Origin: an uncultured virus (IMG/VR IMGVR_UViG_3300017593_000761)
Taxonomy: Duplodnaviria; Heunggongvirae; Uroviricota; Caudoviricetes
Direction: 5' to 3' (one strand)
Length of the DNA stretch: 20,000 bases
IMG/VR virus record: IMGVR_UViG_3300017593_000761
A program made the translations under genes and the position numbers. The first letter of the stretch is position 1. Every line of letters starts with the position of its first letter. The notes below the pieces were generated by a model. The model was given only the letters and a program-made list of their open reading frames with translations, was not told the DNA's origin and did no database searches. Shown piece by piece: positions 1,556-16,043 of the stretch.

Positions 1556-1838
1556 TTTCTTCCTCCTTCAGTTGATTAACATGCTTCCCTATTTCATACA
1601 GAGCCTCCTCACGGGATAATCCAAAGCACTCACAGATGCCCTTGATGAAACCCTCCAGTTGTCTATCGAAATGCTCGCTTTCTTTGTTTGACAGTCCTTT
1701 CTCTCGCCAAACAATGATTTCACCACAGAAGGGACATTTCAGTTCTAAGAAACTCGGGTGCTTAAGAGTTACACCATTCTCCTTCTCTTTAATTATCACA
1801 CCAAAGACCTTACCACAGGATTTGCACTCAACTATCAT
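1548..1838 (-). CDS. Zinc-ribbon-containing hypothetical protein
   Basis: CKSC...CPFC pairs, GGTGAGG RBS, start overlaps the nrdG stop. Confidence 0.7.
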   Translation of the reverse strand: MIVECKSCGKVFGVIIKEKENGVTLKHPSFLELKCPFCGEIIVWREKGLSNKESEHFDRQLEGFIKGICECFGLSREEALYEIGKHVNQLKEEEND

Positions 1839-2575
1839 TTTATGAGTTCCTCACCTTCTCGGGTTCTAACATAGACTGGGAAGTTTGATACTTCCTTTAC
1901 ATGCTCTCCTATTTCTTTGATTTCGTCTTGAGAGAACTCGTCTGTTTCCTCAATGACCTTTCGTCCGTATTGTGGGACATTATCATAAATTCCTTGTTGA
2001 ATCACGTATTCACCCTTGAATTGTTTGAGTTCTCTCGCAATTTGAATGACTTCCTCTTCACCCACCAGTCTCTTAAAGACTGTGGTTTGAATTTGAAGAG
2101 GAAAGTTTGAATTAATGCAATAAGAGAGTGTCTTCCGCACAAATTTCTCTACCCCATTTACTTGAGTTACCTTCTTCCATAGTCTCGGATTGCTTATTGG
2201 AGCCTTAATATCCAAGAAGATTTTATCCACGACCCCAGCCTCTATCAATTCTTTGATGCTTGAAGAGAAATAGCCATTGGTTTGAATGCCTACGAGTCTA
2301 TTTTCTTTGTGTATCCACTCTCCTATTCGTTTAATAGCTTCTACATTAAGAGTGGGTTCTCCACCCGAAAAGACTAAGGCATCAATGAAATCCAATTCCT
2401 TTGTTATCTTCTCAATGACTTTATGAATAGGAACATAATTGGGTTCTGCACACAACTTAAAGTTCTGACAATAAAGACAACGAAGAGGACAACCCCTTGT
2501 GAATAACACAAGAGAATTCAGTCCCCTCCAGTCAATAGTCGAAAGGACTATCCCACCATAGTTTATTTCATTCAT
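1835..2575 (-). CDS. nrdG: Anaerobic ribonucleoside-triphosphate reductase activating enzyme (radical SAM)
   Basis: GCPLRCLYCQN (CxxxCxxC), SGGEPT, TNG and LDIK motifs; adjacent to nrdD. Confidence 0.9.
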   Translation of the reverse strand: MNEINYGGIVLSTIDWRGLNSLVLFTRGCPLRCLYCQNFKLCAEPNYVPIHKVIEKITKELDFIDALVFSGGEPTLNVEAIKRIGEWIHKENRLVGIQTNGYFSSSIKELIEAGVVDKIFLDIKAPISNPRLWKKVTQVNGVEKFVRKTLSYCINSNFPLQIQTTVFKRLVGEEEVIQIARELKQFKGEYVIQQGIYDNVPQYGRKVIEETDEFSQDEIKEIGEHVKEVSNFPVYVRTREGEELIK

Positions 2576-4268
2576 CGTATCTGTCCACCTTTCTATATGG
2601 CAAATCTCGTGTCCTCCTTTCGTGAGTGTTGGACTGTTCCACGAAATAACCCACTATCCTCCTGAACTTAAAGAGATTCCTGTCTCCACAGATGGGACAA
2701 GCCTGAACATCTCCTAAAGTCACGTGGTTATGCGATTGACATCGGGAGATATACGTGTCAAATGCAAAATAAGGGACTTCCTTCTTCACCAACCCTCTTA
2801 TTATCCTCTCCATCTGGTGGACTTCTTTGAATGGACTGGGAATACCCACGAACATCATCTGACCACCCTCAAAGAACTTAGAGAACCTTCCCGTTATCTC
2901 TGCCTTCTCTCCCAAACTCATCTCTATCCACGGCGATACGATTTGATTGGAATACATTTTTCCTGCTTCATAATATCTACAAAATTCGGGATTTCCCGAG
3001 TTATCCGCATATTCTTTATCAGTATCGTAGAGCGAGATAGCAGCTGACTCCGCCGGGACTAATTCACAATTATAGAAGCCTTCCCAGCTATCAATAGTTG
3101 AGCGTATCACCTGAAGAATCTCCTCTAATTCATCCCAAGTGAGAGCTGCCAGTTCTTTAAAGTCCCACAGTCCAATGATTCCTATTGTTGAATACATTCG
3201 TCGTAGTGACCTCAAACCCAGCTGGAAAGTCACATCCAGATGCTGATAATCGTTAAGAAGCTTTCGATGCCAATCAAGGAATTCCCTGATGAGTTGCAAA
3301 TTCTCTTTAATTTTCTCTCGGAATGTATCGGGATGCCTTATGAATATGCCTGGGAGGTTAAGGGACACAACTTGATGACTTCCTATCTGAACACCACCAC
3401 TACCGTAAGAATTGAAGAACGGTCTTCTACTTGATACCAGTCTGCAACATGAGGCTATGGCATCGAGATATGGTAATACAAGGAAGTTATACATCGTGTG
3501 TTTGATGTTCTGTTCCAATGCGAACTTCAGGAATGTCTCATCTTGGATTTGACCGTTTCGTTTCTTCAGTCCCACAGTTATAACTGGGAATCTTAACATC
3601 TGATGTTCTATCTCATTGGTGTGCCATCTCATTACTGCTTTCTGCACAGCTGACAATTCCTCGATTTCTAACTCCCATGCGTTCTTATTAAACAGGTGTG
3701 CTAAATAAGGCTCGTCAAAGAAGGTGATATTCGTAAAGAGAGATTCCGCTCCCTGTCTCAAATGCTGATTGAAAGAATAGAATAATCGCTGAAGTTCATT
3801 ATGGAAACGATACTCGGTGAGCTTCCCATCAGGAGTGGTTTCGATTTTGCTTTTCTTAACGAAATACGTCAGAGCCAATATAAGGTCTGGTATTCCTATC
3901 GCTCCACGTGTCCTGTTAGCCACATAAGACGTGTATTCTATGAGTTGTGAGATGAACGAATCCAATCGCTTTGGTGGCTTGCTCTTGAAGTGTGGATAAT
4001 ACGGAAGACCTTCCGCAAGAATAGGCTCAACGCTAATAGAATAGCAATACGGAGTGAGGATGCACTTGGAAAGATCATGGATATATATCTCGTTTCCGTG
4101 TCTCTTGAGTATCTCCTTACCTTTATTGAACCATTCAGTTATCAGATGCTTATTAAAGACCAGCTCTGCACCCGAAGCTAACTGCTTACGGACATTTGCT
4201 ATATCAGGACTATAATTAGCATTAACATCAACCACACTTTCACCTTCTAAGAATTTCTCAAAGTCCAT
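2568..4268 (-). CDS. nrdD: Class III (anaerobic) ribonucleoside-triphosphate reductase, without ATP cone
   Basis: DxNAN, IYIHDL, PYC, finger-loop SCCRL, ELVPAES, GG, Zn site CQSH...CPIC and glycyl-radical loop RRIVGYF. Confidence 0.92.
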   Translation of the reverse strand: MDFEKFLEGESVVDVNANYSPDIANVRKQLASGAELVFNKHLITEWFNKGKEILKRHGNEIYIHDLSKCILTPYCYSISVEPILAEGLPYYPHFKSKPPKRLDSFISQLIEYTSYVANRTRGAIGIPDLILALTYFVKKSKIETTPDGKLTEYRFHNELQRLFYSFNQHLRQGAESLFTNITFFDEPYLAHLFNKNAWELEIEELSAVQKAVMRWHTNEIEHQMLRFPVITVGLKKRNGQIQDETFLKFALEQNIKHTMYNFLVLPYLDAIASCCRLVSSRRPFFNSYGSGGVQIGSHQVVSLNLPGIFIRHPDTFREKIKENLQLIREFLDWHRKLLNDYQHLDVTFQLGLRSLRRMYSTIGIIGLWDFKELAALTWDELEEILQVIRSTIDSWEGFYNCELVPAESAAISLYDTDKEYADNSGNPEFCRYYEAGKMYSNQIVSPWIEMSLGEKAEITGRFSKFFEGGQMMFVGIPSPFKEVHQMERIIRGLVKKEVPYFAFDTYISRCQSHNHVTLGDVQACPICGDRNLFKFRRIVGYFVEQSNTHERRTRDLPYRKVDRYDE

Positions 4269-4271
4269 TTC

Positions 4272-4298
4272 TGTCCTCCAATTATATTTTAAATATAT
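4272..4298 (-). promoter_or_regulatory. Possible archaeal TATA box/operator plus GGAGG RBS upstream of nrdD
   Basis: Minus strand reads TAATATATTTAAAATATAATTGGAGG before the ATG. There is an inverted repeat TATATTT-N-AAATATA at 4283-4297. Confidence 0.4.
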
Positions 4299-4876
4299 TA
4301 ATCAAGATTGCCCCACTGTTCTGCCATTGCCTTTGCAACCTCTTTATAAGTTCTACTTCTTTCCTTCCATCTGTCACGTGAAGGTGGAAGTTTCCATATC
4401 CGCTGTTTGACATTCTCAGGTCTTTTCTTTATCAATGGTTTCAGAGGTGGGAGGTTTTTTAGCCATAAACAGGTAGCCTTTGACTCATTGACACCAAACA
4501 TCCAAGGCTGAATCAGCTGATCATACTTTCTACCTATCATCTCGACAGCGTATCTATGCGGGATAGGATTTTCAACACATATTCTTTTAATAGGAGCGTT
4601 CAAGAGAGTTCTAAAGAATTCAGCTGCCTCTTTCAACTTCTCCCACCTCTCAGGTCTTTCATGTAACCATCTGACTCCACTATTACACAAATATGTGCAT
4701 GGTGGATGTGCTATCATCAAATCCCAGTTATCGTTTAAGACTTCTCTGACATCACCTTGAATATGATTACCTTTCCGTTCTGAGGGTAACAAATCACAAC
4801 TCCAAGCATCATGTCCTCGTGAGGCAAATTCATCCCTCACTATACCGGAGAACTCACAAGCAATAAGAACTCGCAT
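4298..4876 (-). CDS. Short phage-type putative DNA (cytosine-C5) methyltransferase
   Basis: N-terminus MRVLIACEFSGIVRDEF, then SCD, GDV, catalytic HPPC, ENP, KxTxLW and C-terminal RSxT..A.AMAxQW, typical of this viral family. Confidence 0.75.
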   Translation of the reverse strand: MRVLIACEFSGIVRDEFASRGHDAWSCDLLPSERKGNHIQGDVREVLNDNWDLMIAHPPCTYLCNSGVRWLHERPERWEKLKEAAEFFRTLLNAPIKRICVENPIPHRYAVEMIGRKYDQLIQPWMFGVNESKATCLWLKNLPPLKPLIKKRPENVKQRIWKLPPSRDRWKERSRTYKEVAKAMAEQWGNLD

Positions 4877-4878
4877 CT

Positions 4879-5241
4879 TTAATCCTCCTTCAAGAAATTC
4901 TTAACCCAAGCTTCAAGCGTCTCTTTGTTTTCGTTTGTTTTCTTCTGCCCTCGTTCTTTCTTCATTTCCTCTCTCCATCGTTTATTCAGTAATTCTGTTG
5001 CATCTCCCATTATCTGTGTCCAGAACATCCCATAGAATGCTAATCCTAAACACGCAAAGATAGTCATGGGATCAAGTCCTTTGTAAATCGCAGTGGGAAC
5101 ATTTGAATAATTTGGATACTCACCTCTGCCTCCTAAATGAAGAACCTTTCCGTTATATTCGACGGGAATATCCATTGCCTTTGCGAGCTTAATAATTTCA
5201 TCGTAGTCACCTTTCCACGCCTGTAATGCGAGCTCAACCAT
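4879..5241 (-). CDS. Hypothetical protein (start likely 5241 or 5262 rather than 5322)
   Basis: Track ORF 4879-5322. A GGAG RBS lies 6 nt before ATG 5241, and the upstream extension falls inside repeat copy 2. Confidence 0.6.
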   Translation of the reverse strand: MVELALQAWKGDYDEIIKLAKAMDIPVEYNGKVLHLGGRGEYPNYSNVPTAIYKGLDPMTIFACLGLAFYGMFWTQIMGDATELLNKRWREEMKKERGQKKTNENKETLEAWVKNFLKED

Positions 5242-5286
5242 ACGCTCTCCTACTATTTTCATATTTTGGTCTATCACCACACTATG

Positions 5287-5403
5287 ATTTTGCACCATTT
5301 GCTTATATTTGCACGAGAACAAAATTTTATCGCTGAGCCAATAGTTTTAATCATGTCTCAAGATAAATTGCACCAGAACTCAAAATTGTGCATCTGGTTC
5401 AAT
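5287..5403 (+). repeat. Dispersed intergenic element, copy 2
   Basis: Shares collinear blocks with copy 3 (ATATTTG, AGAACAAAAT, ATAGTTTTA, AGATAAWTTGCA, TGTGCATCT) and with inverted copy 1. It ends in an imperfect inverted repeat ATTGCACCAGA...TCTGGTTCAAT (5367-5403). Confidence 0.8.
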
Positions 5404-5679
5404 AAGCATGTGCTTCCTTCGCTTAAGGTTCTTACTCGCTATTTCATTAAGAGCAAGAGCGGAATAACCCATGATATCCAGAAGAGTATCTTGAACATAG
5501 GGTAAGGCGCTATCCTTCTCTTTCATTGCTAAATTCTTGAGCCTACTGAGTTTAATGGTAAGAATGACATTCACTGCGGTCAAACCGTATTCCTCCCACA
5601 CTCTATGAAACGCATCTCCGTATAATTTATTCTTCCTCTCCAATAAATCATTCACCAACTCAATTACAGCCATCTTCAC
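5380..5679 (-). CDS. DUF1599 / nucleotide-modification-associated domain 1 (Nmad1) protein
   Basis: Pattern RKNxxYG...KLxRLxNL...DTLLDIxGY. Confidence 0.75.
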   Translation of the reverse strand: MKMAVIELVNDLLERKNKLYGDAFHRVWEEYGLTAVNVILTIKLSRLKNLAMKEKDSALPYVQDTLLDIMGYSALALNEIASKNLKRRKHMLIEPDAQF

Positions 5680-6260
5680 ACCTCCTCTATTTTATCTATA
5701 AGACCCCAATCCTTTGCTTCTTGCGGGGACATCCACTTCTCCTTCAACCTTATTGTTTCTCTCACTTCCTCCTCTGTCTTGCCACAACGATTGGCTAATA
5801 TCTTCACTATTTCATTCGTGATTCTGTTCATCTCGGTAACTTCAGTTTCAAGCTGAGAAGTGGATTCGTTGTGGAAATACACCCAACGTTTGGGTTCGTG
5901 TAGCAAGAATGTAGCATGAGGACGAGCTATACGAATATCACCAGCCTGAAGAATAATCATGGCAGCTGCACTCGCTGCGAGACCCTCAACTATTACACGC
6001 ACTTTTATACCAGATTTTGATATCTCTCGTAATGCATCATAAAGAGCAAACGAACCGTGAACTTCTCCACCCTCAGAACACAGCTTCACTGTGAGAGTAT
6101 CTCCTTTCTTTAATTTACGTTTAACCTCACTCAGCAACAACAGATACTCCTTTGTTTTGAATTCATCAACCTCTCCGCTGATATGGATTATACCATCTTC
6201 TAATTCCCGACTCACTATTATGTCCTCTAAACACGTGAAATAATGCTCTTTAACTTCCAT
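5676..6260 (-). CDS. clpP: ClpP-like serine protease (S14 family)
   Basis: SEGGEV, catalytic Ser in GLAASAA, His in LLHEP, and EKWMSPQEAKDWGLIDKI. Confidence 0.85.
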   Translation of the reverse strand: MEVKEHYFTCLEDIIVSRELEDGIIHISGEVDEFKTKEYLLLLSEVKRKLKKGDTLTVKLCSEGGEVHGSFALYDALREISKSGIKVRVIVEGLAASAAAMIILQAGDIRIARPHATFLLHEPKRWVYFHNESTSQLETEVTEMNRITNEIVKILANRCGKTEEEVRETIRLKEKWMSPQEAKDWGLIDKIEEV

Positions 6261-6645: not shown

Positions 6646-7281
6646 TTATATCTCTTGGACTTCACCATCTGGATTGACCATCATCAGCTTCGCAGACCTC
6701 TTCCTCGTATCGTATTCTGTCCAGCCGAGAAGAGCTGGTGGGAGAGACCTCTCTATTGCGTATTGCAGTCCCCTTGCCAACGAACCAGTCCTCAAGAGAG
6801 TCACTCGTTTATCTCCACGCAAGACGTCGAGCTTAGCAAGGATGTGATTGTGTCCCAACGCTATAACATCCGCGTCAATGAACTGAAGGAGTTTCCTGTG
6901 TTCACTCCAGATGTCCATTGCTGTGCTTCTGCCATGCGCAAAATAGAACTTAACACCATCCACTGTTATCTCATGTGAAGGTTTACCCAAGTATTCCTCA
7001 TAGACATTGAGACCCACCTGATTGAATATCCTGTATTCGTGATTACCCAAGCAATAAGCTATGACGTTCAATTCCCTCGTTATAGTTCTTACCCAGCGCA
7101 ATTGAGCCTGTGGCTGTATCTCATTCTCGAATTGCATACCATTGGAGAGTCCACAATCTATCAAGTCACCCATGAGAATTACCTTAGCCCCTCGCCAGTG
7201 AGTCTTGGCTATCTCCTCTATGGTCTCTGGAGAAAGCTCTCCCTGACCTATATGCCAATCCCCATTTAATACCACTCTCAT
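6646..7281 (-). CDS. Calcineurin-like metallophosphoesterase
   Basis: All five motifs present: DWH, GDxxD, GNHE, FAHG, GHNH. ATGA-coupled to polB. Confidence 0.88.
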   Translation of the reverse strand: MRVVLNGDWHIGQGELSPETIEEIAKTHWRGAKVILMGDLIDCGLSNGMQFENEIQPQAQLRWVRTITRELNVIAYCLGNHEYRIFNQVGLNVYEEYLGKPSHEITVDGVKFYFAHGRSTAMDIWSEHRKLLQFIDADVIALGHNHILAKLDVLRGDKRVTLLRTGSLARGLQYAIERSLPPALLGWTEYDTRKRSAKLMMVNPDGEVQEI

Positions 7282-9305
7282 ATTCCGCCTCCAAATCTAT
7301 TCAAGTTGGTTTGGGAAAGAATGTCCTCTATTTCTTTTAGAGGAGTATAAAACCATTTATTAAGGATAGTTCTATAATCAATTTCAGGAAGTTCATCAAT
7401 TATATCCTCATGAATAGCCAAATAGCCAATAGAATTATTCTTAGTTGGGACAATAGGAAGCTTCTCGCCTGCATAATACGGTATGCGATACAATCGCAGT
7501 CTGTTCTTTGCGGCTTTGAGATGAGACGTCTGCACTTTGGGTGAGGTTGAAGAGAGGCGTATCCATTCGGCTATATCCATCACATTCTGCTTCTTTATTT
7601 CCTCTTGCACTTGAGACTTCAAAGCACGTAATTCCTCCCATTTGCTCTTGAGTATATACTCGTATGCCAACATAAGTGCATTCCTGATATACATGGGACA
7701 TGACGTTTTATTCACCACCGTCCCAGTTATCTTCAACTTGCCGTCTTTTGTGATGCCAAAATAGTTCTTCTTCTTATCGTAAAGAAACAAGACATCAAAC
7801 TCTTTATCTATATCGAGATTGAATTCCTCGCCCCATGTCTTATGCAATTCCTCATTCAGCTCATTCATTATTTTCACAGGCTCTGGGTGGACTATCATCA
7901 TTGCATCAGTATCTCCCGCTAATATGGGAATGCCTCGTTCTTCTACACGTTTCCAGATATATGTCAGGAGGGCTCGCTCATGTGAAGTTACCTCAGCTGC
8001 CAGCTTCCTGTTATAAAATCGTGATTTTGAATACCCGAGTATCCCTATACAGGCATTAAGTAGGAATTTATATGAGGTATTCCATATCTGACTTTGAGTG
8101 TCTCCTCTTTTCTTGTATAGCTTCTTGTATTCGAGCCTTCTCTCAAACAATTCCCGAATGGTCTCTGTGAGTATGCCTGGATTCCTGATATCCCTATCGG
8201 GCGAGATATTGAAGTGCATAACAATAGATGGGTAGAGTGACGTAAAATCTAACACCGTGACGCCCCGATGCAGACCCTTCTGTGGTTCTCTAACTAGTGC
8301 ACCTTTATACTTTTTATGCTTCACTCTTCCCTTATTAGGCAATACATATTTGTTGTGGTATCGCCTCAAGAGATACGCCTCGATGATACTGCTCCTATTC
8401 ATAATGTCTATGGTATTAAGAGGCACAAGATTCTGAAATGAGAAGACCAACTGTGAGAGTTTCAACTTCTCGTCTATTTCCTTAGTGAGGGTTACATCTT
8501 CTATACAATGAAGGAGCTCTGGTAGAGATGGGTCTTTCCTCCTTCCGAGCACAAGATAAGCAACGTGGTCAAGGAAATATCGTCCTCCTCGCTCTCCAAA
8601 TTCTCGATACGCTCTCATCAGGTCTAATGGCTGACTTTCTCCTATCGTATATTCATCATGGTATTTCCTAAATACGCTCTTGTCTCTGGCACGATTGAAC
8701 ATGTAGGTTAAATCGAAATTACTTGAGTTCCACCCAATAATCACATCGAAATCCAGCGTCTTACAGAACGAGAAGAAGGACTTCAATAACTGTTGGTCAT
8801 CATCAAATACAAAAGCCTTAACGCCGTCTATTGCATAATCTCGTAATACGAAAGGATAATGTCGCTGAGTGAAGCTATCATAAGCATCAATCACGGTGAT
8901 GGGAAGGGGAGCATTCTCAGTGTCGAGAGAACCATTTCCTCGCTCCACTTCGATATCAAAATAAAGTATCCTCCTGTTTAATCCAAACGTTAAATTAGAG
9001 TCTATCAAGTAGCGAGTCAAATAAGGAATGTCAGACTCCATACTAAAACTGACATTTCGTTTTCCTGTCTCAAGGTCTTTTATTGAATTGAATGAAATCT
9101 TATCAAGAGGCTTGTTGTCATAAGAAACGTATCCCTTCTCCCGTGCAACGTGAGGAAATGAAACCTTTTCTTCTGGTCTCACATAGAAATAAGGATACTT
9201 TCCGTTTCGCACTGAGTAGGTTACCTGAGAACCCTCCCGAAACTTCAATTTAACGGAAGGTCTTGAATTCCGTGAACCAATTAGAGAAGCATTCACAAGT
9301 TCCAT
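7278..9305 (-). CDS. polB: Family B DNA polymerase (RNA-primed, archaeal PolB3-like, compact)
   Basis: N-terminal PYFYV and ESDIP...RYLID; ExoI FDIE, ExoII NxxxFD, ExoIII HCIED; motif A DFTSLYPS, motif B KxxxNACIG, motif C GDTD, KKNY; C-terminal PIP-like QTNLNRF. Confidence 0.95.
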   Translation of the reverse strand: MELVNASLIGSRNSRPSVKLKFREGSQVTYSVRNGKYPYFYVRPEEKVSFPHVAREKGYVSYDNKPLDKISFNSIKDLETGKRNVSFSMESDIPYLTRYLIDSNLTFGLNRRILYFDIEVERGNGSLDTENAPLPITVIDAYDSFTQRHYPFVLRDYAIDGVKAFVFDDDQQLLKSFFSFCKTLDFDVIIGWNSSNFDLTYMFNRARDKSVFRKYHDEYTIGESQPLDLMRAYREFGERGGRYFLDHVAYLVLGRRKDPSLPELLHCIEDVTLTKEIDEKLKLSQLVFSFQNLVPLNTIDIMNRSSIIEAYLLRRYHNKYVLPNKGRVKHKKYKGALVREPQKGLHRGVTVLDFTSLYPSIVMHFNISPDRDIRNPGILTETIRELFERRLEYKKLYKKRGDTQSQIWNTSYKFLLNACIGILGYSKSRFYNRKLAAEVTSHERALLTYIWKRVEERGIPILAGDTDAMMIVHPEPVKIMNELNEELHKTWGEEFNLDIDKEFDVLFLYDKKKNYFGITKDGKLKITGTVVNKTSCPMYIRNALMLAYEYILKSKWEELRALKSQVQEEIKKQNVMDIAEWIRLSSTSPKVQTSHLKAAKNRLRLYRIPYYAGEKLPIVPTKNNSIGYLAIHEDIIDELPEIDYRTILNKWFYTPLKEIEDILSQTNLNRFGGGI

Positions 9306-10072
9306 TCTAAATACTCCTCCAAACTTCTTTGATTCCTATCTCGTCCTAAAATTCTTTCTTGTGCTATTTCACAGTATTTTTCTGATATTTCAATGCCTAT
9401 CCACTTACGGTTCAGCCGCTCACATGCCACTGCCGTTGTGCCAGACCCGAGAAAAGGATCCAATACCAGCATGTCTTCTGCTGTATGATTCTTGATAATT
9501 CGGGAGACTAAGTCCAGTGGCTTTTGGTTCTGATGTAACTGTTCAGCGCCAGAGACTCTTCTGAAGAACCAGACATCGGACAGCCTCTTATCAGACACGA
9601 ACCGAGAGCGTCCTTTACTTCCATAAATGATCATCTCATACTGCTGCCCATACTGAGCTTCCAAATCCCCTGCCGTCCAGTTGTTCTTTACCCACACTAT
9701 AATGTTCTTGATCTTGAATCTGGTCTTAACGTATCTTTTGAACACGTCTACGGTCTTCCACGAACAGAACGTGTATATGGCAGCATTCTTCCGTAGAATC
9801 CGGAACGCCTCTCTCAGGAAGAACTTTATCAGGCTTGCATGCTTTATCGAATCGTTATATATTGGCGAACAGAACTCATGTCCCCGGTCTTTACGATAAT
9901 TGGTCTCGTAGCCTATCAGATAGGGAGGGTCAGCTATCACCAAATCTACACTTTGAGTCGGAATAATGTTCATTACTTTCAGGGAGTTACCACAAAGCAG
10001 CACTCCGTTCTCTGTATGGAAGTAGTGATATTTGCTATCAATCAGTTTCTTTCTTAACTCTTCCCAATTCAT
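9293..10072 (-). CDS. DNA amino-methyltransferase (N6A/N4C), beta class
   Basis: DPPY precedes HxxQKP and DPFLGSGTT. Confidence 0.92.
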   Translation of the reverse strand: MNWEELRKKLIDSKYHYFHTENGVLLCGNSLKVMNIIPTQSVDLVIADPPYLIGYETNYRKDRGHEFCSPIYNDSIKHASLIKFFLREAFRILRKNAAIYTFCSWKTVDVFKRYVKTRFKIKNIIVWVKNNWTAGDLEAQYGQQYEMIIYGSKGRSRFVSDKRLSDVWFFRRVSGAEQLHQNQKPLDLVSRIIKNHTAEDMLVLDPFLGSGTTAVACERLNRKWIGIEISEKYCEIAQERILGRDRNQRSLEEYLEWNL

Positions 10073-10785
10073 TTTAGGAAATTTATTAAGGTCTTTTGGT
10101 GTTTATCATATCCTAATACCCGCTTCTGGATTATCTCACAATAACGTTCCGAAATCTCAATACATATCCATCTGCGGTTATGCTTCTCGCATGCCACTGC
10201 GGTTACACCTGTGCCTGCAAACGGATCCAGTATTAATTCTTCTTCCTTAGGACTGCCACGAAGTAGTAATCTTTCCCAAAATTTGAGCGGTTTGGGACAT
10301 GGATGCTCATAGGATTGGTTATCTAACCCTGTTGCCTCTATTATATCGCTTCTCGCTCCGAGTCCTTGAGTTAAGTAGGGGTCCTTACCATACGCGAGTA
10401 TAGGTTGCCATTGAGCAAATCCCCACTTGCCTCTTGAGTTCGTCGTCTTATAGACCCAAGCAAGAATCCAATAAGGAGGTGGATAAAGAGAGATGTTAGT
10501 GAGACCACAGGTTAATAGCATGACTTTGCCTACTCGCACAGCTTGAGGCATGAATTTCTTAATAAGAGCCTTGAGGTTCTCTTTGATATCCTCATAATTA
10601 TCGTATTGCTTTCCTAATGCGTAAGGAGGATCTGTCAAAATCAAATCTATACTTTTATCGGGGAGCATCTTCATGATTTCAATACAGTCCCCGAGAAGCA
10701 TAACTCCTCGATCGGTATGAAAATAATGATATTTGGAGTTAATCAACTCACAATACAATTTATACCAGTCGGTGTGTTCTGTCAT
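10069..10785 (-). CDS. DNA amino-methyltransferase (N6A/N4C), beta class; paralog of 9293-10072
   Basis: DPPY, HPCPKP and DPFAGTG motifs. Confidence 0.92.
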   Translation of the reverse strand: MTEHTDWYKLYCELINSKYHYFHTDRGVMLLGDCIEIMKMLPDKSIDLILTDPPYALGKQYDNYEDIKENLKALIKKFMPQAVRVGKVMLLTCGLTNISLYPPPYWILAWVYKTTNSRGKWGFAQWQPILAYGKDPYLTQGLGARSDIIEATGLDNQSYEHPCPKPLKFWERLLLRGSPKEEELILDPFAGTGVTAVACEKHNRRWICIEISERYCEIIQKRVLGYDKHQKTLINFLK

Positions 10786-11484: not shown

Positions 11485-12678
11485 CTAAAATCCTATTCTC
11501 TCTATCACGGAGGGCTCTTCACCTAACTTTGTCTGTGCGACTAAAGGCTTGAGCCTCTGGTATGCCATCTCACAATATTCCTCGTTTGAGTCTATTTGAA
11601 TGCTGTTGAATCCCGTTTGTTCGGCAACTACTCCCACTGTCCCAGTTCCTGCGAAAATATCCATCACAACTCCATTTGGAGGACATCCCGCAAGAAGACA
11701 GGAGGACACAAGAGATCGTGGGAATGCAGCCCAATGTGGAAGAGAACTCGGCTCAAGATTAATTTGCCAAACGTTAGGACGGTTAGCTCCGGTTAAATCT
11801 CCCTGATTAACACGCTCTGCGAAGTGACGTGCTCCCGTATGTTTCATAGCACCTTGAATATCTCCTTTGGTTGGATTGAATGCGTGTCTAACTCGTTCTC
11901 GTGTTGCTTCTTTAAGAGGTGTTCGTATGGCGTCTTGATCCCAATAGTAACGTGGACTTTTTACCAATACGTATACGGGCTCATAAGTGAATGCACATCT
12001 ATCGTTTGCAGATGTGGGCATAGCAGAACCAATGGTTGTATTAGTTTTGGAAATCCAAATTTTCTTTGCCCAAATTATCCTGTCTCGAAGTCTCAATCCT
12101 AACTCATCTACGCATCTGGCAATAAATCTTTCATTTTGTAAACATAAGGACTTGGGAGGAATTTCATTAGTGACACATCTTCCTTGATGCTCTCTATATT
12201 TGAAGCTATTCCATCCCATTCCTCCTGTTCTTACGTTTGAACTTGAGGCATAAGAATCTCCTTGGTTCCAAAATATCACTCCCGTCTTCTTGAGAACCCT
12301 CTTCAGTTCTTTCATTATGTCTAAGAGATGATTGATATACATCTCCAAAGATGGCTCGAGTCCAAGTTGTCCATAAAAAGCTCCGCATCTCTTACAGAAT
12401 TTCCCGCTTGAAAAACTCTTATGTTCTGCATCCTTCGTGACTGTGGCTATATCAATTATGTTTGAGCTTATGCCGTGATGGGGCTTACTAAATTTTCTTG
12501 AGCAATCTTCCCATTCGTGCTCACAAGAAGGATTGCCATTCCAGATTGTGTATGTGCTTTCTCCATAATCTCTTAACCCTCCCCAGTAAGGTGGAGAAGT
12601 AACAACACAATCAATGCTTTCATTAGGTAATGTCTTCAACACATCCAGCACATGTCCACAAATTATCGTGTGCTTCAT
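11485..12678 (-). CDS. DNA amino-methyltransferase, beta class, SPPY type (likely N4-cytosine), with Cys/His insertion
   Basis: TSPPYW, CEHEW...CKRCG insertion, GQLGLEP, HxAxFP and DIFAGTGT motifs. Confidence 0.9.
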   Translation of the reverse strand: MKHTIICGHVLDVLKTLPNESIDCVVTSPPYWGGLRDYGESTYTIWNGNPSCEHEWEDCSRKFSKPHHGISSNIIDIATVTKDAEHKSFSSGKFCKRCGAFYGQLGLEPSLEMYINHLLDIMKELKRVLKKTGVIFWNQGDSYASSSNVRTGGMGWNSFKYREHQGRCVTNEIPPKSLCLQNERFIARCVDELGLRLRDRIIWAKKIWISKTNTTIGSAMPTSANDRCAFTYEPVYVLVKSPRYYWDQDAIRTPLKEATRERVRHAFNPTKGDIQGAMKHTGARHFAERVNQGDLTGANRPNVWQINLEPSSLPHWAAFPRSLVSSCLLAGCPPNGVVMDIFAGTGTVGVVAEQTGFNSIQIDSNEEYCEMAYQRLKPLVAQTKLGEEPSVIERIGF

Positions 12679-13994: not shown

Positions 13995-14648
13995 TTAAAT
14001 TCCGCCTTTAACTACGAATATCCCTAAGCTATCAGCAACATCTTCAGCTGAATCTAAGACTTGCTCAAGTCTCGTGAGTATCTCTAAGAGAAGCAGTCTC
14101 TCTCCCTCTTCCCTAAATGCTCTTCTAACCAACCGTATCAACCAGCTTCTATACAGCTCGTCTCCTCTGTTCTCATTACGATTAATACCTTTGATATAAA
14201 AACTGATCTCGTCTTGATTTATCGAAACGTCATAGAGGAAATAAACAGCAAGTGTAATATCCCTTATGGTTGATTTAAAGAGAGGAACGAAATCATCCCG
14301 CATCTGCAATGCAAGAGTGTTTGGTTCTATATTCGCTATCCTCCAAGCAGCACCTTCAATGTTATCAATGATATTATCGAGATTGTGGAGGAACACTTGG
14401 ATATCGCCCTTCTCTTCCGTTACTCTTGTATGGTCATAAAGAAGCATCATGTTCAAATCGTGAACTATTCGGTCTGCACGTTCTTCCATTTCTTTTATAT
14501 TCGAGATTGTTTTGCTCGGATGCTCATTTGCTCCTAAATGCTCAAGAGCATCCACACTCTCCTCTATCACCGAAACCAGTTCTTGAATTGATTGAAGATA
14601 AGTTTCTGTCTTTCTCGGAATCAAATATCTTGAAATTCTTTTTAGCAT
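13995..14648 (-). CDS. DUF47 / PhoU-like phosphate transport regulator
   Basis: Duplicated ExxxD helices: EERAD, LDNIID, ENRGDELY and LEQVLDSAEDVAD. Confidence 0.82.
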   Translation of the reverse strand: MLKRISRYLIPRKTETYLQSIQELVSVIEESVDALEHLGANEHPSKTISNIKEMEERADRIVHDLNMMLLYDHTRVTEEKGDIQVFLHNLDNIIDNIEGAAWRIANIEPNTLALQMRDDFVPLFKSTIRDITLAVYFLYDVSINQDEISFYIKGINRNENRGDELYRSWLIRLVRRAFREEGERLLLLEILTRLEQVLDSAEDVADSLGIFVVKGGI

Positions 14649-15418
14649 TTAATCTCTTTCACCTCTCCTGGATTGGTAAATAATTTTCCTTTTCTTACTT
14701 CTTCTCTTAATCGTTTCAATCCTAATTTATAATAAGTCGGGTCTTTCTCAATTGCTATTGAATTCCTTCCCAAAGATTCCGCTACTACGCTTGTAGTGAA
14801 CATCCCCGCAAATGGGTCTAACACTATATCATTAGGAAAGCTCCAGTATTCCATGAGTTCCCTAATTACTTTACGAGGCTTGAGAGTGGGATGGTTGTAT
14901 CGCTTTCGTTCATCTCCAAGAGCCTTTGGTGCAACAATGTAATCAGGATGTTCCTTGAGGGATTTATTAAAGTGGTGTTCATTTCCTTTCTGGCGCGTTG
15001 CAATTATAAAGAGGATGGATGCACTGCTCCAAGCGTTGCTTCTAAACATCGGAATATATACGGGAGATATCCATACACCAATATTACGAATGTGACTTCC
15101 GTCCTTTTCAATTGCTTGCATTGTTCGTTCGGCTAATCGCTTACCCGTGAAAGTGATAAGAACTCCATTCTCCTTCAATATTGGTATGACAAGAGGAATC
15201 CAGTCTTCTGGGAATATCTCATTCTTGTCCCATTGACCAAAATCCAATGAATACTTTTGATTGTCTATGTTAAGACACGTCTCTTGAGAAATGTTGAAAG
15301 GTGGATCAGTCAGGATCAAATCCACAGAGCCTTTAGGTAATAACGGAAGTATCTTACGACAGTCTCCGTGAAATGCATAATGCCTGATTTTGTCCTTAGG
15401 AAACTCCAGCTTTATCAT
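14642..15418 (-). CDS. DNA amino-methyltransferase, beta class (DPPF, likely N6-adenine)
   Basis: TDPPFN, HPTLKP and DPFAG motifs. Confidence 0.9.
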   Translation of the reverse strand: MIKLEFPKDKIRHYAFHGDCRKILPLLPKGSVDLILTDPPFNISQETCLNIDNQKYSLDFGQWDKNEIFPEDWIPLVIPILKENGVLITFTGKRLAERTMQAIEKDGSHIRNIGVWISPVYIPMFRSNAWSSASILFIIATRQKGNEHHFNKSLKEHPDYIVAPKALGDERKRYNHPTLKPRKVIRELMEYWSFPNDIVLDPFAGMFTTSVVAESLGRNSIAIEKDPTYYKLGLKRLREEVRKGKLFTNPGEVKEIKC

Positions 15419-16043
15419 CTTTCCCGTAAAAGAAATCGAAGATACGCTTCTTAACTGGAGTATCCGCTTCCCTCGATTCTTCTATGACCTTAATGAGTGT
15501 TTGTGATTCCTTGAGGAGGTTTTCAGCTGTAATGTTACCAATGCGAGGGACACACATTAGACACGCAACTCGCAGAGAATGAAGGTTAGCATTGGTCTTC
15601 GATACCTTTATATCGGCTGTTCTTGGAGGTGAGACCTTTTGCTTCTTTTCTATCATCATAGCGAGATACTTGAATGCACTACTCAACTTTGCAAACTCAA
15701 CGATAGGAATACCCATCATTAAGACTGAAATCTTCGTGCCTTCTACCATCGAATTCGTTATGCCTCTACGTGAGATGACTTCCCTCCAACTGAATTCATC
15801 ACCATCAAGAAGTAGAAAAGGATGAGCATAATTAGATTTCATTACATACAAATTAGTCCAAAAGGAAGGGCGTCTTGCAGAGGTAATGAAATCAGATGGA
15901 GTTTTCCTTTCGATTATAATATCCTCAAATTGAATGTCCCCTACCTCAAGCTTGCTACGTCTGATTTTAACGTCCTTTAGTGTTTGAACTGCTGTTTCAT
16001 AAACATGCTTGGGTTCTCTTGTATCCACTATTACCTCGCTCAT
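15396..16043 (-). CDS. ERCC4/XPF-family structure-specific endonuclease with HhH domain
   Basis: VDTRE, GD and ERKxxxD motifs; HhH VPRIGNITAENLL. Confidence 0.88.
   Translation of the reverse strand: MSEVIVDTREPKHVYETAVQTLKDVKIRRSKLEVGDIQFEDIIIERKTPSDFITSARRPSFWTNLYVMKSNYAHPFLLLDGDEFSWREVISRRGITNSMVEGTKISVLMMGIPIVEFAKLSSAFKYLAMMIEKKQKVSPPRTADIKVSKTNANLHSLRVACLMCVPRIGNITAENLLKESQTLIKVIEESREADTPVKKRIFDFFYGKDDKAGVS

Follow-up and report, generated by a model that had tools for sequence, protein, structure and literature searches.

Archaeal clients of PCNA carry a PCNA-interacting peptide (PIP) with the consensus Qxxhxxaa, usually in a terminal position. The review that gives these features also reports that the QLTLF motif of Sulfolobus PolB1 binds PCNA2, and quotes the E. 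coli beta-clamp consensus as QL(S/D)LF (PMC3504372). Comparable dependencies on a clamp are described for crenarchaeal XPF, which uses PCNA as a cofactor (PMC2836553, PMC2588518), for DNMT1, whose PCNA-binding motif couples maintenance methylation to replication (PMC9690074), and for MuC of phage Mu, reported in a preprint to be toxic through a beta-clamp-binding motif (bioRxiv 10.1101/2025.01.04.631326). Full-text literature searches (subscription journals being outside their scope) turned up no report of a viral or prokaryotic DNA methyltransferase (MTase) with a clamp-binding motif, and DNMT1 alone came up. A preliminary description of the DNA analysed here likewise knew of no characterised case of clamp-tethered MTases in archaeal viruses. 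The DNA is a 20-kb stretch (the window, to which all unprefixed coordinates refer) of the IMG/VR record IMGVR_UViG_3300017593_000761, with 30 called proteins. Two of its MTases, here MTase-A and MTase-B, end in short tails, which we consider probable PCNA-interacting peptides that would couple viral methylation to replication.

The two MTase genes and the gene for a family-B DNA polymerase (PolB) are consecutive and overlapping on the minus strand. MTase-B (10069..10785, 238 amino acids) and MTase-A (9293..10072, 259 amino acids) are predicted beta-class N6A/N4C DNA methyltransferases matching Pfam family PF01555 (N6_N4_Mtase; E-values 1.9e-23 and 5.5e-39, respectively), and PolB (7278..9305, 675 amino acids) matches DNA_pol_B (4.8e-31) and DNA_pol_B_exo1 (1.8e-15). 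The MTase-A start and the MTase-B stop overlap, as do the polB start and the final 13 nt (last four codons) of MTase-A. The preliminary description had all three proteins end in Qxx[L]xx[FY] motifs, and minus-strand translation places each of them where it was said to be. In PolB, QTNLNRF (7293..7313, residues 665-671 of 675) is followed by GGGI. The appended tail of MTase-A, LGRDRNQRSLEEYLEWNL (9296..9349, residues 242-259), contains the core QRSLEEYL at 9308-9331 (residues 248-255 of 259) followed by four residues, and that of MTase-B, LGYDKHQKTLINFLK (10072..10116, residues 224-238), contains QKTLINFL at 10075-10098 (residues 230-237 of 238) followed by one. QRSLEEY, QKTLINF and QTNLNRF all match the PIP core Q-x-x-[LIVM]-x-x-[FYW].

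These matches exceed what composition predicts. The pattern Q..[LIVM]..[FYW] falls within the last 12 residues of three of the 30 window proteins, against 0.14 expected (Poisson P(≥3) = 4e-4). With the paralogous MTases counted once, P(≥2) = 9e-3, the fairer figure because MTase-A and MTase-B are paralogues. Of 3000 resamplings, 0.07% produced at least three motif proteins. For comparison we used eight related virus records, G001-G008, including G002 (72 kb, terminal repeats, 89% complete) and G004 (80.7 kb, terminal repeats, 100% complete). Of 113 open reading frames (ORFs) in G002, two (0.5 expected) have the strict motif at their C-terminus, those of PolB and of the MTase next to it. A relaxed motif, [QKRST]..[LIVM]..[FYW][hydrophobic], was tried and discarded as too permissive (9 of 113 G002 ORFs against 4.4 expected), so a count alone cannot support a ligase, ORF 4879 or other weak candidates. 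A position matrix built from 23 distinct PIP tails of cellular archaeal PolBs ranked PolB (6.8), MTase-A (6.3), MTase-B (4.3), an ERCC4 nuclease (4.0) and a 397-residue MTase (4.0) highest among the 30 window C-termini; the sixth-best scored -1.9, a gap of about 6 bits below these five. The same scan placed the G002 MTase first of 113 C-termini. The motif observation is thus real and non-random.

Both tails appear to be additions to the enzymes that carry them. MTase-A and MTase-B match PF01555 with 134.8 and 84.0 bits (cut-off 26.7), and DPPY and DPF.G.G are invariant in the MTase alignment, with motif IV N-terminal and motif I (FxGxG) C-terminal, the beta-class order. The closest solved MTase, 9c3u_A (249 amino acids), can be aligned with residues 158-223 of MTase-B and has three residues beyond the aligned part; 5hfj and 8s9m behave in the same way. 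An AlphaFold2 model of MTase-B, computed from a 114-sequence alignment, has a mean predicted local distance difference test (pLDDT) score of 90.6 and a last fold helix at residues 213-223. Along the C-terminal part the pLDDT falls from 95-98 (residues 201-220) to 78 (221-230) and then 46 (231-238). Homology ends at residue 223 and the pLDDT drops, so that the motif lies on a terminal, apparently flexible extension as in PIP clients. The 52% identity of the MTase-A body to MTases of Streptococcus and Staphylococcus phages is confined to residues 31-241. Alignment and model together place the tail outside the catalytic fold as an add-on, a predicted appendage of 15-18 residues after the last fold helix that ends Q-[KR]-[STG]-L-x-x-[FY](-L). 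The idea that the tail hydrophobics form a structural strand of the fold was rejected, as solved homologues end three residues past the last helix and most MTase-A-family members have no tail at all. Six members of the MTase-A family (P0428, P0466, P0499, P0446, P0443 and P0470) end in QANIFDFL, QTTIFDFL, QTSIFDFI, QVSIFDLL or QTSIFTDF; these ends look like canonical PIP or phage-clamp motifs, and the relatives of these proteins are otherwise tail-less.

PolB- and MTase-based scans of viral contigs yielded 15 loci of one clade, with 12 distinct nucleotide versions of the tail. Among these versions the Q is invariant, the L is invariant through the codons TTA, TTG and CTT, and position 7 is F or Y (TTT, TTC or TAT), while all four x positions vary (K/R at 2, S/T/G at 3, E/I/M at 5, E/N/D at 6). 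The aromatic residue is followed by nothing, L, LK, FY, LEWNL, LEWNS or WEWNL. The preliminary description had made its reading depend on conservation of the tails among homologues; within the single viral clade sampled, with its three body types, Q, L and the residue at position 7 (F or Y) are kept while the x positions drift. A common linker and tail, LG-x-D-x-x-Q-x-x-L-x-x-[FY], stands on three MTase bodies (types B, A and that of locus L009) that are 34-40% identical to one another. Between MTase-A and MTase-B, 27 of the last 38 domain residues are identical (75/114 nt), as against 5 of 13 tail residues (19/39 nt), the identical residues being G, D, Q1, L4 and L8, with Y/F at position 7. 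The chance that five random identities in 13 cover three named positions is 45/1287 = 0.035 (hypergeometric, calculated by hand).

The tail also moves between bodies. At L003:1487-2212, a lone MTase upstream of polB combines a B-type body (90% identical) with an A-type tail (…QRGLEEYLEWNS), a chimera that looks like the product of recombination between two tandem MTase genes of the window type. A clade-specific N-terminal stretch of ~25 residues (DW.KLY..LI.SKYHYFHT; 10705-10785 and 9995-10072, minus strand; alignment A1, columns 1-30) is likewise common to the three body types. Bacterial-phage homologues lack it, and their alignments begin at about residue 19-31. With N-terminal stretch and tail both conserved, the variable core is flanked like an exchangeable cassette.

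The PolB tail provides an internal reference. Clade PolBs end in QTNLNRF, QTDLNKYI, QTNLSRFI, QTHLFAY, QRNLGGY, QKDLGEF, QTHLFI or QRTLF, and cellular archaeal PolBs have QTGLDQFFWK, QMTLGDYF, QTTLFEW or QRTLFDFF at the same place; the motif occurs in the last 30 residues of 67 of the 120 PolB homologues listed. Judged from these sequences, the window PolB tail and the PIP boxes of the cellular archaeal enzymes are homologous in position. The nearest named PolB relative (90% identity) comes from a metagenome-assembled genome (MAG) of Candidatus Bathyarchaeota, more distant relatives are cellular archaeal PolBs, and among cultured viruses the haloarchaeal tailed ones match best, at 24% identity. 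A PolB scan of genome contigs found no relative. The host is probably an archaeon.

Among MTase homologues outside the clade, a different motif recurs in this position. Most of the 120 closest listed MTase-B homologues are ~210 amino acids long and end directly after the last helix. Ends found among these best 120 include SQLKLF, QQKLF, QGKLF, RLRQEILL and QQMRLPL, and MTases of viral contigs have QLKLF, QLSLF, QLKLNL, QLKLDL, QLKLCL or QGKLF there. The QLxLxL hexapeptide is a second form of the beta-clamp-binding motif, and ends such as QLKLF and QLKLNL correspond to the pentapeptide and hexapeptide forms, respectively. We searched the last 15 residues for a literature-style pattern, Q..[LM](F|.[LF]), and compared its frequency with that in 500 tail shuffles. 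It was present in 38 of the 120 listed MTase-B homologues (shuffles: mean 3.4, maximum 11; random internal windows: 0.7) and in 25 of 150 representatives at 50% identity (shuffles: mean 2.2, maximum 7), an excess over shuffled tails of about tenfold in the MTase-B homologues. As the sequences are related, these counts do not represent independent events, and the metagenomic homologues are presumed to come from bacterial hosts. The 15 clade loci have eight distinct tails, all of the seven-residue PIP type and none of the beta-clamp type, whereas 63 non-clade viral loci have 55 distinct tails, 17 of the beta-clamp type and one of the PIP type (an overlap, QDQLKLF). Two of six cultured-virus MTases examined carry short tails as well, QQRLF in Sulfolobus virus SMV3 and QMCLGF in gp62 of mycobacteriophage Giles. 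In the large phage contigs of non-clade loci L080-L086 (up to 141 kb), MTases end in DQIQL[DE][ND]DL[KA]DY[DE] or RNTQLNLNY, a third recurrent tail type.

The window clade seems to add a switch within one family between beta-clamp-type and PCNA-type tails. We suggest, tentatively and at slightly less than an even chance, that clamp docking is common to viral DNA MTases across domains, with a PF01555 subfamily carrying a portable C-terminal peptide that is re-tuned to the clamp of the host and shuffled between bodies within a lineage. Bacterial beta clamps would then be addressed by QxxLF or QxxLxL, and PCNA by QxxLxx[FY] or, in viruses of Sulfolobus, by QxxLF; replication-coupled self-methylation would be a widespread anti-restriction strategy and the prokaryotic-virus counterpart of DNMT1-PCNA, having arisen independently.

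For the window itself, we propose that the PolB and MTase tails would dock into the hydrophobic pocket and interdomain-connector region of the host PCNA. The preliminary description suggested searching the contig for a PCNA gene; the PCNA_N, PCNA_C, bacterial beta-clamp and gp45-type clamp families were not found in the window or in any of the eight related records, including the complete G004. With no detectable viral clamp gene, the clamp addressed by PolB, and by inference the MTases, should be the host's, and the archaeal affinities of PolB would make it a PCNA. The ring would be loaded on replicating viral DNA and shared in tool-belt fashion, and the new duplex would be methylated directly behind the fork, ahead of host restriction enzymes. 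Anti-restriction is thus a presumed benefit. In this form, with conservation, appendage position, equivalence to the PolB tail and the matrix ranking in its favour, the proposal of clamp-tethered MTases in the preliminary description holds up as plausible and internally consistent; its expectation of a viral PCNA does not.

Several observations weigh against this proposal. The missing viral clamp is one. The second aromatic residue of the consensus is absent: at position 8 both window MTases have L, and PolB has G; in relatives this position is F (L023), W (L018-20), L or absent, and many cellular archaeal PolBs likewise end at position 7 (for example, QTTLFEW*). The x positions resemble those of real PolB PIPs weakly (random sequences at least as good with frequencies of 0.018-0.31). 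The Q codon is always CAA, with no synonymous turnover, and most clade sequences are at least 80% identical, leaving few independent comparisons (A-type, B-type and L009-type). Clamp-like tails are not general among PF01555 phage MTases: no motif is present in the four other cultured-virus MTases examined, those of Vibrio, Pseudoalteromonas, Staphylococcus and E. coli phages, and among the best 120 listed homologues of MTase-A (119 besides the query) five, the query included, have PIP-like and eight beta-clamp-like tails. One PolB relative (64% identity) was assigned by binning to a Halanaerobiales bacterium, although the other named ones are all archaeal. Lastly, GAGGA lies in the L-E-E codons of polB-adjacent tails, 8-10 nt before the polB ATG (window 9296-9331, minus strand; L007:8290-8330). 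This is a probable ribosome-binding site embedded in the PIP-coding sequence, so that part of the tail conservation could serve polB translation.

This last point belongs to an alternative in which the tails are inherited baggage without binding activity, kept as recombination handles for MTase cassettes and as downstream start signals. The GAGGA in the tail codons, the overlap of the last four MTase-A codons with polB, the L003 chimera, the conservation of both gene ends across body types and the close relationship of most clade members would all fit. A Shine-Dalgarno constraint may account for the two E positions, but it does not explain Q, L and F/Y. Moreover, the MTase-B tail precedes MTase-A rather than polB and has no GAGGA (TTA ATA AAT TTC CTA AAA TGA), yet it keeps Q1, L4, the aromatic at 7 and L8 despite its low nucleotide identity to the MTase-A tail, and in unrelated contexts homologues have the bacterial counterpart in this position far more often than shuffled tails do. 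We therefore regard baggage as unlikely. Docking onto another partner, such as the viral PolB, an undetected viral clamp-like protein or a replisome hub (RecJ/DHH-like and RadA-like proteins are encoded nearby), would be compatible with the lack of a recognisable clamp gene, the many ORFs without a family match and the non-aromatic position 8. PolB itself has the same motif at the cellular PIP place, however, which points to a shared third partner rather than to PolB, and the tails fit the PIP consensus and terminal placement given in PMC3504372; a different partner is, in our view, quite unlikely.

The tails could also bind PCNA mainly for takeover, filling its pockets so as to displace polymerases of the host or its repair and restriction-linked factors; the targeting of methylation would then come second. 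Several viral proteins with one peptide would compete for the three pockets per ring, and MuC, as reported in the preprint (bioRxiv 10.1101/2025.01.04.631326), offers a precedent for toxicity through a clamp motif. The peptide is nevertheless specific to DNA-acting enzymes, which make up the five best-scoring of the 30 C-termini, and the MTases are catalytically intact by motif (DPPY and FxGxG present), so that recruitment of an activity fits better than a pure blocker; we consider takeover as the main role very unlikely. Least of all do we expect a bacterial host whose beta clamp is bound by variants of its usual motif. The Halanaerobiales label, clade PolBs ending in QRTLF or QTHLFI and MTase bodies of bacterial-phage type would agree with such a host, but the Bathyarchaeota MAG, the archaeal origin of the other named relatives and the haloarchaeal cultured-virus matches do not. 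Nor do the ERCC4 nuclease and Rad51/RadA-type ATPase in the window, or the ATP-dependent ligase and weak Alba and TRASH matches of G002. The Q-x-x-L-x-x-aromatic spacing is also of the PCNA type, in contrast to the Q-x-x-L-F or Q-x-x-L-x-L of non-clade homologues.

Further tails in the window are of uneven quality. The preliminary description listed three weaker variants, QTKL (11524-11535), KRIFDFF (15429-15449) and KETLEAWV (4903-4926), and all three are present at these positions; as PIPs, the ERCC4 variant is credible and the other two are not established. KRIFDFF lies 10 residues from the C-terminus of an ERCC4/XPF-type nuclease (15396..16043, minus strand; Pfam ERCC4, 1.1e-11), fourth in the matrix scan, and K-K-R-I-[FHR]-[DE]-F-F-Y is kept in four of its relatives. 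Its credibility comes from this conservation, from the matrix score and from the need of crenarchaeal XPF for PCNA. QTKL belongs to the tail AQTKLGEEPSVIERIGF (11488-11538) of the 397-residue SPPY-type PF01555 MTase (11485..12678, minus strand). The tail AQTKLG[ER]EPSVIE[RK][IV]GF ends this MTase in all relatives, and the B-type 223-residue MTases P0003 and P0004 (76% identical to MTase-B) share it. Its QxKL start is that of the bacterial-type motif, but positions 7/8 hold no aromatic residue, which makes it a second portable tail rather than a canonical PIP. KETLEAWV stands near the C-terminus of a 147-residue protein (ORF 4879; 4879..5322, minus strand; no Pfam or PHROG match). TLEAWVKNFL is kept in two relatives at 86% identity and the matrix score is low (0.2 in G002); support for a PIP here goes no further than conservation in close relatives. 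A 258-residue PF01555 MTase (14642..15418, minus strand) has KGKLF at 14678-14692, followed by 11 further residues, where homologues have QxKLF; its invariance in five relatives is uninformative at ~85% identity.

The credible genes of the window are all minus-strand genes and, by Pfam and PHROG matches, form the replication and nucleotide-metabolism module of a tailed virus. Besides PolB they include an RNA/DNA ligase-like protein, NrdD, NrdG, ClpP, a metallophosphoesterase, the ERCC4 nuclease, a Rad51/KaiC-like (Rad51/RadA-type) ATPase and a DUF47 protein; many ORFs here and in G002 have no family match. There are four PF01555 MTases and a fifth methyltransferase-like gene (4298..4876, minus strand, 192 amino acids; phrog_757 'DNA methyltransferase', 2.8e-62; no Pfam match), whose product ends …AEQWGNLD without a clamp-like tail. 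Five methyltransferase or methyltransferase-like genes thus stand inside 11 kb (4298-4876, 9293-10785, 11485-12678 and 14642-15418, minus strand). Family searches of the window found no recognisable restriction endonuclease near these five. As for orphan MTases, the adjacent genes encode PolB, a phosphoesterase, further MTases and small proteins without assignment; the same searches gave no nuclease family match adjoining the MTases, although a restriction role could still hide among the unknown ORFs. The stretches 1835-4268 and 5380-6260 (minus strand) encode an anaerobic ribonucleotide reductase with its activase, a ClpP-like protease and a DUF1599 'nucleotide modification associated' protein, a set suggesting that the host is anaerobic and, possibly, that the DNA is modified in further ways.

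G002 adds a terminase, a prohead protease, a tape-measure protein, an ATP-dependent ligase, and weak Alba and TRASH matches. Its 808-residue protein with an ATP-dependent DNA-ligase domain lies inside the structural gene block (L012:4124-9608; G002 44124-49608, plus strand) and ends in …TSRLIQFY and 14 further residues. The next gene encodes a 1023-residue protein with Hint/intein and LAGLIDADG matches. Elsewhere in G002 (L011:809-4156; G002 20809-24156, minus strand) genes for six or seven small paralogues (~100-160 amino acids) stand in tandem; the proteins have similar C-termini (…GILTFYSSEDIIKNFM, …GMLSIYSPEEIIREFM and …LLSVLSPKEILGRYL) and no family match.

What would be new here is the MTase as a client class for a known motif, together with a clamp-less virus clade that by implication relies on host PCNA and whose tails move between MTase bodies. 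If the tails bind PCNA, viral orphan MTases would be replisome components rather than freely diffusing enzymes, which would explain how a fast-replicating viral genome is fully methylated in time to escape restriction. The archaeal PCNA tool-belt would gain a client class, and DNMT1-PCNA a prokaryotic-virus parallel. The type of tail would serve as a sequence-only predictor of host domain for uncultured viruses, and the short peptides could be used as probes or inhibitors of archaeal and bacterial clamps.

Set beside the described systems, the window tails most resemble those of archaeal PIP clients such as PolB, the RFC large subunit and Fen1. They have the core Q-x-x-L-x-x-[FY] at the extreme C-terminus on a flexible extension, next to a PolB with the same motif. 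They differ in that the client is a virus-encoded DNA MTase, predicted from sequence, with position 8 being L, F, W or absent. The short QxxLF tail by which Sulfolobus PolB1 (QLTLF) addresses archaeal PCNA (PMC3504372) compares with QQRLF of the SMV3 MTase and QRTLF of a clade PolB, and the PCNA dependence of crenarchaeal XPF described in PMC2836553 and PMC2588518 parallels KRIFDFF of the viral ERCC4 nuclease. PolB1 and XPF, unlike the window proteins, are cellular replication and repair enzymes with measured binding. Clients of the bacterial beta clamp are matched at the site of the window PIP by MTase-B homologues ending QLKLF, QLSLF, QLKLNL, QLKLDL, QGKLF or QMCLGF, whereas the window tails have PCNA spacing, with the aromatic at +7, and none of the eight clade tails is of the beta type. 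DNMT1 (PMC9690074) would be a functional parallel, a DNA MTase with a PCNA-binding motif (here putative) that would favour newly replicated, PCNA-marked DNA. DNMT1 is a C5 enzyme, whereas the window catalytic domain is a beta-class N6A/N4C domain of PF01555, and the presumed purpose here is anti-restriction self-marking. The window system would accordingly be an analogue of DNMT1-PCNA and not a relative, with an independent origin.

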